From Escherichia coli (GTDB lineage: Bacteria; Pseudomonadota; Gammaproteobacteria; Enterobacterales; Enterobacteriaceae), in assembly GCF_003334815.1 (NCBI RefSeq), contig NZ_QOWO01000008.1: DNA of 64,000 nt. One strand, 5' to 3'. Under the pieces are notes generated by a model that was not told the origin of the DNA, did no database searches, and saw nothing but the letters and a program-made list of their open reading frames with translations. A program made the position numbers and the translations under genes. Within the stretch, counting starts at the first letter, position 1, and every line of letters begins with the position of its first letter. Positions 46,696 through 47,004 of this stretch are shown here, piece after piece.

Positions 46696-46730
46696 ATAAA
46701 AAAAGGCCCCTGTTGAAATTGCAGGGGCCT
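46696..46730 (-). terminator. Rho-independent terminator downstream of cutC (also the expected 3' end of MicL)
   Basis: Minus strand: AGGCCCCTG-caatttcaa-CAGGGGCC followed by TTTTTTTAT. Confidence 0.8.
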
Positions 46731-47004
46731 GGTACGAGCAAGCATCATATTGGGCGACATGATGCAACGGTAAAAATCATTTGGCCTGATGGCGTTCAAT
46801 GATTCCTTTCATTTCAGCAACCGCCGCCCCGTCTACGATATAACGCGAATACTCGTCCGCGTGTTCATCTGATGACATGGACAATCCTTGATTACGATAA
46901 CGCATCGGTGAGGCTTGCCACGCTCCCGCGGAGCTATGGACTTCCAGCACTCCGGCATCGAGGAAGTGGTGCAGGTTTTCTGCACGGACTCCTGCTCCGG
47001 CCAT
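46697..47004 (-). ncRNA. micL: sRNA MicL (RyeF), sigma-E-dependent, encoded within the 3' part of cutC; boundaries approximate
   Basis: Placed by position only: MicL is known to start inside cutC and end at the cutC terminator (about 308 nt primary transcript). I did not verify the internal sigma-E promoter in the sequence. Confidence 0.35.

Follow-up and report, generated by a model that had tools for sequence, protein, structure and literature searches.

The closest described counterpart of the locus analyzed here is MicL (RyeF) of Escherichia coli K-12 (RF02654, b4717; Guo et al. 2014, Genes Dev 28:1620), an RNA of 308 nt whose sigma-E-dependent transcription was shown with tiling arrays, northern blots, and a GFP fusion. 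MicL starts 226 nt before the stop codon of cutC, and the 308-nt species resists 5'-monophosphate-dependent exonuclease, which marks it as a primary transcript, whereas MicL-S, which runs for 80 nt from the last base of that stop codon, is a processed form (Guo et al. 2014). MicL-S is thought to be the active form of MicL. Both RNAs bind Hfq and need Hfq for stability (Guo et al. 2014); by RIL-seq, Hfq sits mainly on the processed fragment, and lpp-MicL chimeras were recovered. Mutations in the MicL seed abolish repression of lpp, compensatory lpp mutations restore it, and repression acts at translation, while the copper sensitivity of cutC mutants was traced to MicL loss together with an excess of Lpp (Guo et al. 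2014). Later work reports that NsrR represses sigma-E-dependent promoters and that CsrA may interfere.

MicL belongs beside MicA and RybB, the two further sRNAs in E. coli that depend on sigma-E and Hfq; they likewise have sigma-E promoters, use Hfq, repress abundant outer-membrane proteins by base pairing, and serve the same envelope-stress feedback loop. MicA and RybB, however, are free-standing intergenic genes with 31 targets together, whereas MicL is embedded in a protein-coding gene, matures from a longer precursor, and has a single established target, lpp. In its maturation MicL-S resembles CpxQ and ArcZ, since in each case RNase E releases the mature sRNA from a longer transcript and the 3' terminator is kept; MicL differs from both in having its own promoter inside coding sequence. 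The three also differ in the rne-3071 mutant, in which processing of ArcZ and CpxQ is clearly reduced and production of MicL-S, in the same assays, is not (Updegrove et al. 2018, bioRxiv 10.1101/341578). Measured against K-12 MicL, the locus described here is identical in sequence, host gene, promoter, terminator, processing site, and seed, and we found no substantive difference; the only discrepancy is 1 nt in the annotated 5' end.

micL and its host gene

We analyzed a stretch of 64,000 nt of E. coli DNA, hereafter the window, and read its minus strand between positions 46,698 and 47,523 as follows.

46777..47523, minus: cutC coding sequence, 248 aa, host gene of MicL (ORF; NCBIfam NF008603; RefSeq b1874 maps to the same coordinates)
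47039..47058, minus: A/T-rich stretch directly upstream of the -35 element, cutC codons 156-161 (third-base conservation)
47032..47038, minus: -35 element of the micL promoter (PmicL), GGAACTT, codons M162-E163-L164 (motif scan; GGAACT invariant in 18 other genomes)
47010..47014, minus: -10 element of PmicL, TCCAA, codons A170-P171-I172 (motif scan; 5/5 bases invariant in 18 other genomes)
46698..47005, minus: MicL primary transcript, 308 nt (Rfam RF02654; RefSeq micL; Guo et al. 2014)
46777..46778, minus: RNase E site AAAUG|AUUU, G46778|A46777, inside the cutC UGA stop (sequence; Guo et al. 2014; Updegrove et al. 2018)
46698..46777, minus: MicL-S, the 80-nt processed form, comprising the cutC 3' UTR and the last base of the stop (lengths from Guo et al. 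2014; fold; conservation)
46738..46768, minus: predicted stem-loop A of MicL-S (fold; role shown by Updegrove et al. 2018)
46729..46740, minus: lpp seed UGCUCGUACCAG, MicL-S +38 to +49 (extracted; coordinates from Guo et al. 2014)
46698..46730, minus: intrinsic terminator (stem-loop B), common to cutC and MicL (fold energy; invariant in 19 genomes)

The feature is almost certainly micL (also RyeF, b4717), a 3' UTR-derived, Hfq-dependent sRNA of E. coli encoded within cutC. When the whole window was scanned, the Rfam MicL model RF02654 matched the minus strand at 46698-47005 (308 nt) at 381.9 bits, where the gathering score is 56 (E 2e-115), and the alignment covers model positions 1-308 of 308 with no truncation. 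Many E. coli genomes, K-12 MG1655 among them, carry the 501 nt around MicL with 100% identity, and of 5426 complete E. coli genomes 5425 have the region at >=95% identity. NC_000913.3 is collinear with the window over 5001 nt, window coordinates being K-12 coordinates minus 1,911,743, and the ncRNA micL b4717 of that record (1958441..1958747) falls at 46698..47004 (307 nt). Conversion of the lengths given by Guo et al. (2014) places MicL at 47005..46698 and MicL-S at 46777..46698, so that the sources disagree by 1 nt on the MicL 5' end: 47005 by Rfam and by the published arithmetic, 47004 in RefSeq b4717. No evidence against the MicL identification was found. MicL is thus already known: Rfam curates it, the K-12 reference genome carries its annotation, and it has been characterized experimentally, so that nothing about it here is new.

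The first-pass annotation of this DNA had placed MicL at 46697-47004 by position only, which is within 1 nt of our coordinates at each end, the same margin as between published sources; the alignment to MicL that it proposed as a check turned out to be full-length to the curated family and identical to the K-12 micL locus. The protein-coding side of its reading also holds, as the ORF it had called cutC (46777-47523, minus) is a match to the CutC equivalog NF008603 (480 bits against a cutoff of 311). The primary transcript includes the last 226 nt of cutC plus the stop codon, which bears out the earlier claim of dual function: these 226 nt are both coding sequence and sRNA precursor.

MicL lies upstream of torY (45289-46389), which is on the minus strand like cutC, and the gene order argS / yecM-cutC-torY-torZ is the same as in K-12. 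The sole difference in the collinear 5 kb is at 46304 in torY codon 29, where the plus strand has G and two MG1655 records have A, giving TorY Ala29 rather than Val29; the G variant is natural, because 46204-46404 recurs with 100% identity in many E. coli genomes. The window thus comes from an E. coli that is very near to the MG1655 reference yet distinct from it. The mechanically called yecM ORF (47537-48109, minus) has a GTG start and 190 aa, while RefSeq starts two codons later at the ATG at 48103 (188 aa), and the NCBIfam profile alignment of YecM begins at residue 3. As a separate matter of annotation, the PGAP-annotated K-12 MG1655 record NZ_CP032667.1 lists cutC and torY and has no micL ncRNA, whereas the curated NC_000913.3 has it.

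The window holds further Rfam matches. The known overlapping antisense pair SraC/RyeA (11357-11501, plus, 175 bits) and SdsR/RyeB (11361-11460, minus, 114 bits) gave full-length matches, and C0465 matched at 60996-61073 (plus, 111.6 bits). ES036/CssrF at 42720-42762 (plus) scored 45.5 bits, just over its threshold of 37.6, and ES036 was also found in an Escherichia whittamii locus (L016, 3381-3423).

A sigma-E promoter within cutC codons

The sequence GGAACTT-N17-TCCAA lies on the minus strand at 47038-47010, within cutC codons 162-172, and is the single match to GGAACTT-N15-17-TCNAA in 64 kb; a relaxed sigma-E scan of the window again returned this site alone. The first-pass annotation, which had not located a sigma-E promoter, had proposed looking for one on the minus strand near 46990-47040, and the site lies inside that interval. 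Its expectation of a sigma-E-type promoter therefore stood, but the particular form that it gave, GGAACTT-N16-TCAAA, is not matched, and a strict search for that form would miss PmicL on account of its 17-nt spacer and its -10 element, TCCAA. The spacer of sigma-E promoters is usually 16 nt, in contrast to the 17 nt at PmicL. Sigma-70-like sites sought with a generic scan occurred at chance level (2 found, 2.5 expected) and were set aside.

[quoted passage not shown] A-P-I). The motif is not rare in this sense, as 0.13 matches are expected by chance per 64 kb and at least one occurs in 13 of 100 shuffled windows, so counting matches says little by itself. The position of the motif relative to the MicL 5' end, on the other hand, does carry weight: the -10 element ends 5 nt before an RNA start that Rfam predicts independently. 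PmicL resembles the sigma-E logo and is sigma-E-inducible, including in a GFP fusion spanning -65 to +20, and promoter point mutations nearly abolish both MicL and MicL-S (Guo et al. 2014).

To compare this reading across species we used 19 loci from other species, retrieved with a sequence pattern built from conserved MicL-S positions and representing 13 Citrobacter species, 3 Escherichia lineages, Salmonella enterica subsp. diarizonae, Pseudenterobacter, Lelliottia, and Huaxiibacter. Retrieval by this pattern makes its 23 specified bases conserved by construction and leaves out lineages with divergent or no MicL; the main E. coli and S. enterica representatives are absent from the scan although the window matches, so either a specified base differs or the scan was incomplete. 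The Rfam MicL model scored above threshold in all 17 loci scanned, full-length except in one truncated locus (L015), and GGAAC(T/A)-N-TCCAA was present at the same position in each of the 18 loci whose upstream DNA was long enough.

A codon alignment of the 17 genomes with complete cutC (66-92% nucleotide identity to the window) separates the promoter from its surroundings: 11 of 12 promoter bases are invariant as opposed to 2 of the 17 spacer bases, the spacer being almost wholly variable. When the 7+17+5 layout was slid over cutC, 11/12 was reached at only two of 715 offsets, the true site and its +1 neighbour. Part of this conservation is explained by the protein, given that E163, L164, P171, and I172 are invariant in 17 species. 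Third codon positions, however, are invariant at only 11% gene-wide, yet those of codons 162, 163, 170, and 171 are fixed, and the GAA and CCA codons are never synonymously replaced. Promoter bases are also kept where the residue changes, with the third base always G at codon 162 (L/M/T) and always T at codons 169 (D/G/R) and 170 (A/T/V). Collectively, the pattern is that of selection acting on a DNA element rather than on CutC, as judged from the alignment, and we consider a mere by-product of CutC codons extremely improbable.

Six of the nine cutC codons with a variable residue and an invariant third base fall in codons 156-170, and at codons 156, 159, and 160 the residue varies among the 17 species while the third base is always A. 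The A/T-rich stretch at 47039..47058 is possibly an UP-like element.

Published alleles can also be placed on this promoter. The synonymous -35 A-to-G mutation fits a change of GAA to GAG at 47035, as judged from the legend in Guo et al. (2014), while the '-10 C-to-T' mutation, also published as synonymous, could not be placed, as any C-to-T change in TCCAA would alter the encoded CutC residue. Of the two copper-sensitive alleles, K49R (A146G in the old numbering) corresponds to codon K151 and position 47072, which is -67 from a start at 47005, and R66H (G197A in the old numbering) to codon R168 and position 47021, between the -35 and -10 elements; both placements agree with Guo et al. (2014).

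The processed RNA and its precursor

The terminator shared by cutC and MicL consists of a 9-bp G+C-rich stem (46730-46722 with 46712-46704), a 9-nt loop, and a U7 tract at 46704-46698. Its fold energy is -17.7 kcal/mol (z = -4.4), and none of 200 shuffles folds as well. The terminator had been placed at 46696-46730 beforehand, which is right to within 2 nt. A generic terminator scan missed it because loops were limited to 8 nt. In sRNAs of this kind, Hfq usually binds a hairpin together with the U-tail that follows it. As a whole, MicL-S is predicted to fold into stem-loop A and the terminator at -28.8 kcal/mol (z = -5.15), and these agree with the two stem-loops described by Updegrove et al. 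(2018), who found that RNase E needs both adjacent stem-loops to cut precisely at AAAUG|AUUU. In the window this sequence is present at 46778|46777 and is followed by the two stem-loops; the cleavage itself is known from the literature, and the window provides its sequence context.

The processed form varies little: of the 81 columns that cover MicL nt 228-308, 79 are the same in all 19 genomes, as are 56 of the 58 positions free of the retrieval pattern, and the sequence diverges directly after the U-tract. In Pseudenterobacter, Lelliottia, and Huaxiibacter (L010, L011, L020), cutC has 247 codons and ends at a TAG stop 10 nt further upstream, the MicL precursor is 315 nt, and the cleavage context G|AUUUUU is kept as CGA in the 3' UTR, not as a stop codon. 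That this context persists in three genera where it holds no stop implies that the MicL-S 5' end is conserved independently of the stop codon, in agreement with the observation that a TGA-to-GGA change leaves MicL processing unaffected (Guo et al. 2014).

This maturation step also bears on where MicL-S comes from. It might be mainly processed from the full-length yecM-cutC mRNA, as a 'type II' 3' UTR sRNA like CpxQ, with the internal promoter playing a minor part. MicL-S can indeed be processed from cutC mRNA as well (Guo et al. 2014), and RNase E cleavage needs the 3' stem-loops only and no upstream sequence (Updegrove et al. 2018). [quoted passage not shown] 2014); purifying selection on PmicL in the codon alignment likewise argues against it. 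We therefore give processing of the long mRNA as the main source next to no credence and take PmicL to be the principal origin of MicL-S.

The seed UGCUCGUACCAG faces lpp coding nt +16 to +28, CUGGUACUGGGCG, with seven contiguous Watson-Crick pairs (CUGGUAC with GUACCAG). For this comparison the lpp sequence was taken from an E. coli genome (locus L021), as lpp was sought in the 64-kb window and is absent from it. The energy of the MicL-S:lpp duplex is only modestly better than background, being equalled by 5 of 1000 shuffles and 2 of 80 ORF starts in the window, and because it discriminates so weakly we rejected it as independent evidence of targeting; the pairing claim rests instead on the published compensatory mutations.

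The body of the full-length RNA presents a different picture. Judged by the Rfam structure, 82% of cells are paired over the whole 308-nt RNA, with the coding-body helices 43-66% paired in other species. Two-sided changes occur at 7 pairs, a number that 50 of 500 shuffles reach, and the well-kept helices never vary and so carry no comparative information. A conserved structure of the coding body thus has little comparative support, its helices often being broken in other species, and the fold has the look of a minimum-energy fold of the E. coli sequence, not of one conserved among species. In line with this, the MicL 5' part is dispensable for processing (Updegrove et al. 2018). The mean unpaired probability of the lpp seed is 0.25 in full-length MicL compared to 0.60 in MicL-S. 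A specific masking of the seed by the MicL 5' end, by which processing would amount to activation, was rejected: the pairing partner is not conserved, the probability that the seed pairs with the first 20 nt ranging from 0.03 to 0.56 across orthologs, and the seed is no more accessible (0.16) once those 20 nt are shuffled.

The MicL 5' end coincides with, or lies 1 nt before, an AUG at 47004-47002 (CutC Met174) that is in frame with cutC, the RefSeq end being the A of this codon. All 19 orthologs have an AUG at position 2-4 and an open frame of 74-75 codons, which is expected, as the frame is that of cutC itself. There is a slim chance that the 308-nt RNA also serves as a leaderless mRNA for the C-terminal 75 residues of CutC, ending at the stop that RNase E cleaves, or that ribosomes on it influence processing, and such a form is unlikely to matter. 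A full-text literature search returned no paper linking MicL with leaderless translation.

Proposed pathway and its significance

In the mechanism described by Guo et al. (2014) and Updegrove et al. (2018), sigma-E would direct RNA polymerase to start at GGAACTT-N17-TCCAA during envelope stress or stationary phase, giving a 308-nt RNA that runs past the end of cutC and stops at its terminator (47005 to 46698). RNase E, guided by the two 3' stem-loops, would then cut within the cutC stop (46778|46777) to release the 80-nt MicL-S, a step consistent with the in vitro cleavage of MicL by RNase E at the in vivo site (Updegrove et al. 2018). Together with Hfq, the single-stranded seed between the hairpins (46740-46729) would pair with lpp mRNA codons 6-10, block initiation of lpp translation, and lead to decay of the mRNA, such that synthesis of Lpp, an abundant protein of the envelope, would fall and sigma-E activity would in turn be damped.

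The promoter, the terminator, the seed, the context of the cleavage site, their conservation, and the identity of MicL are read here from the sequence. [quoted passage not shown] Every element that the published MicL mechanism would need is present and intact in the window.

micL is a worked example of a promoter and part of an sRNA precursor written into protein-coding sequence. Embedded sRNAs such as micL are easily lost in routine automated annotation, and the copper sensitivity long ascribed to the CutC protein actually belongs to the MicL RNA.
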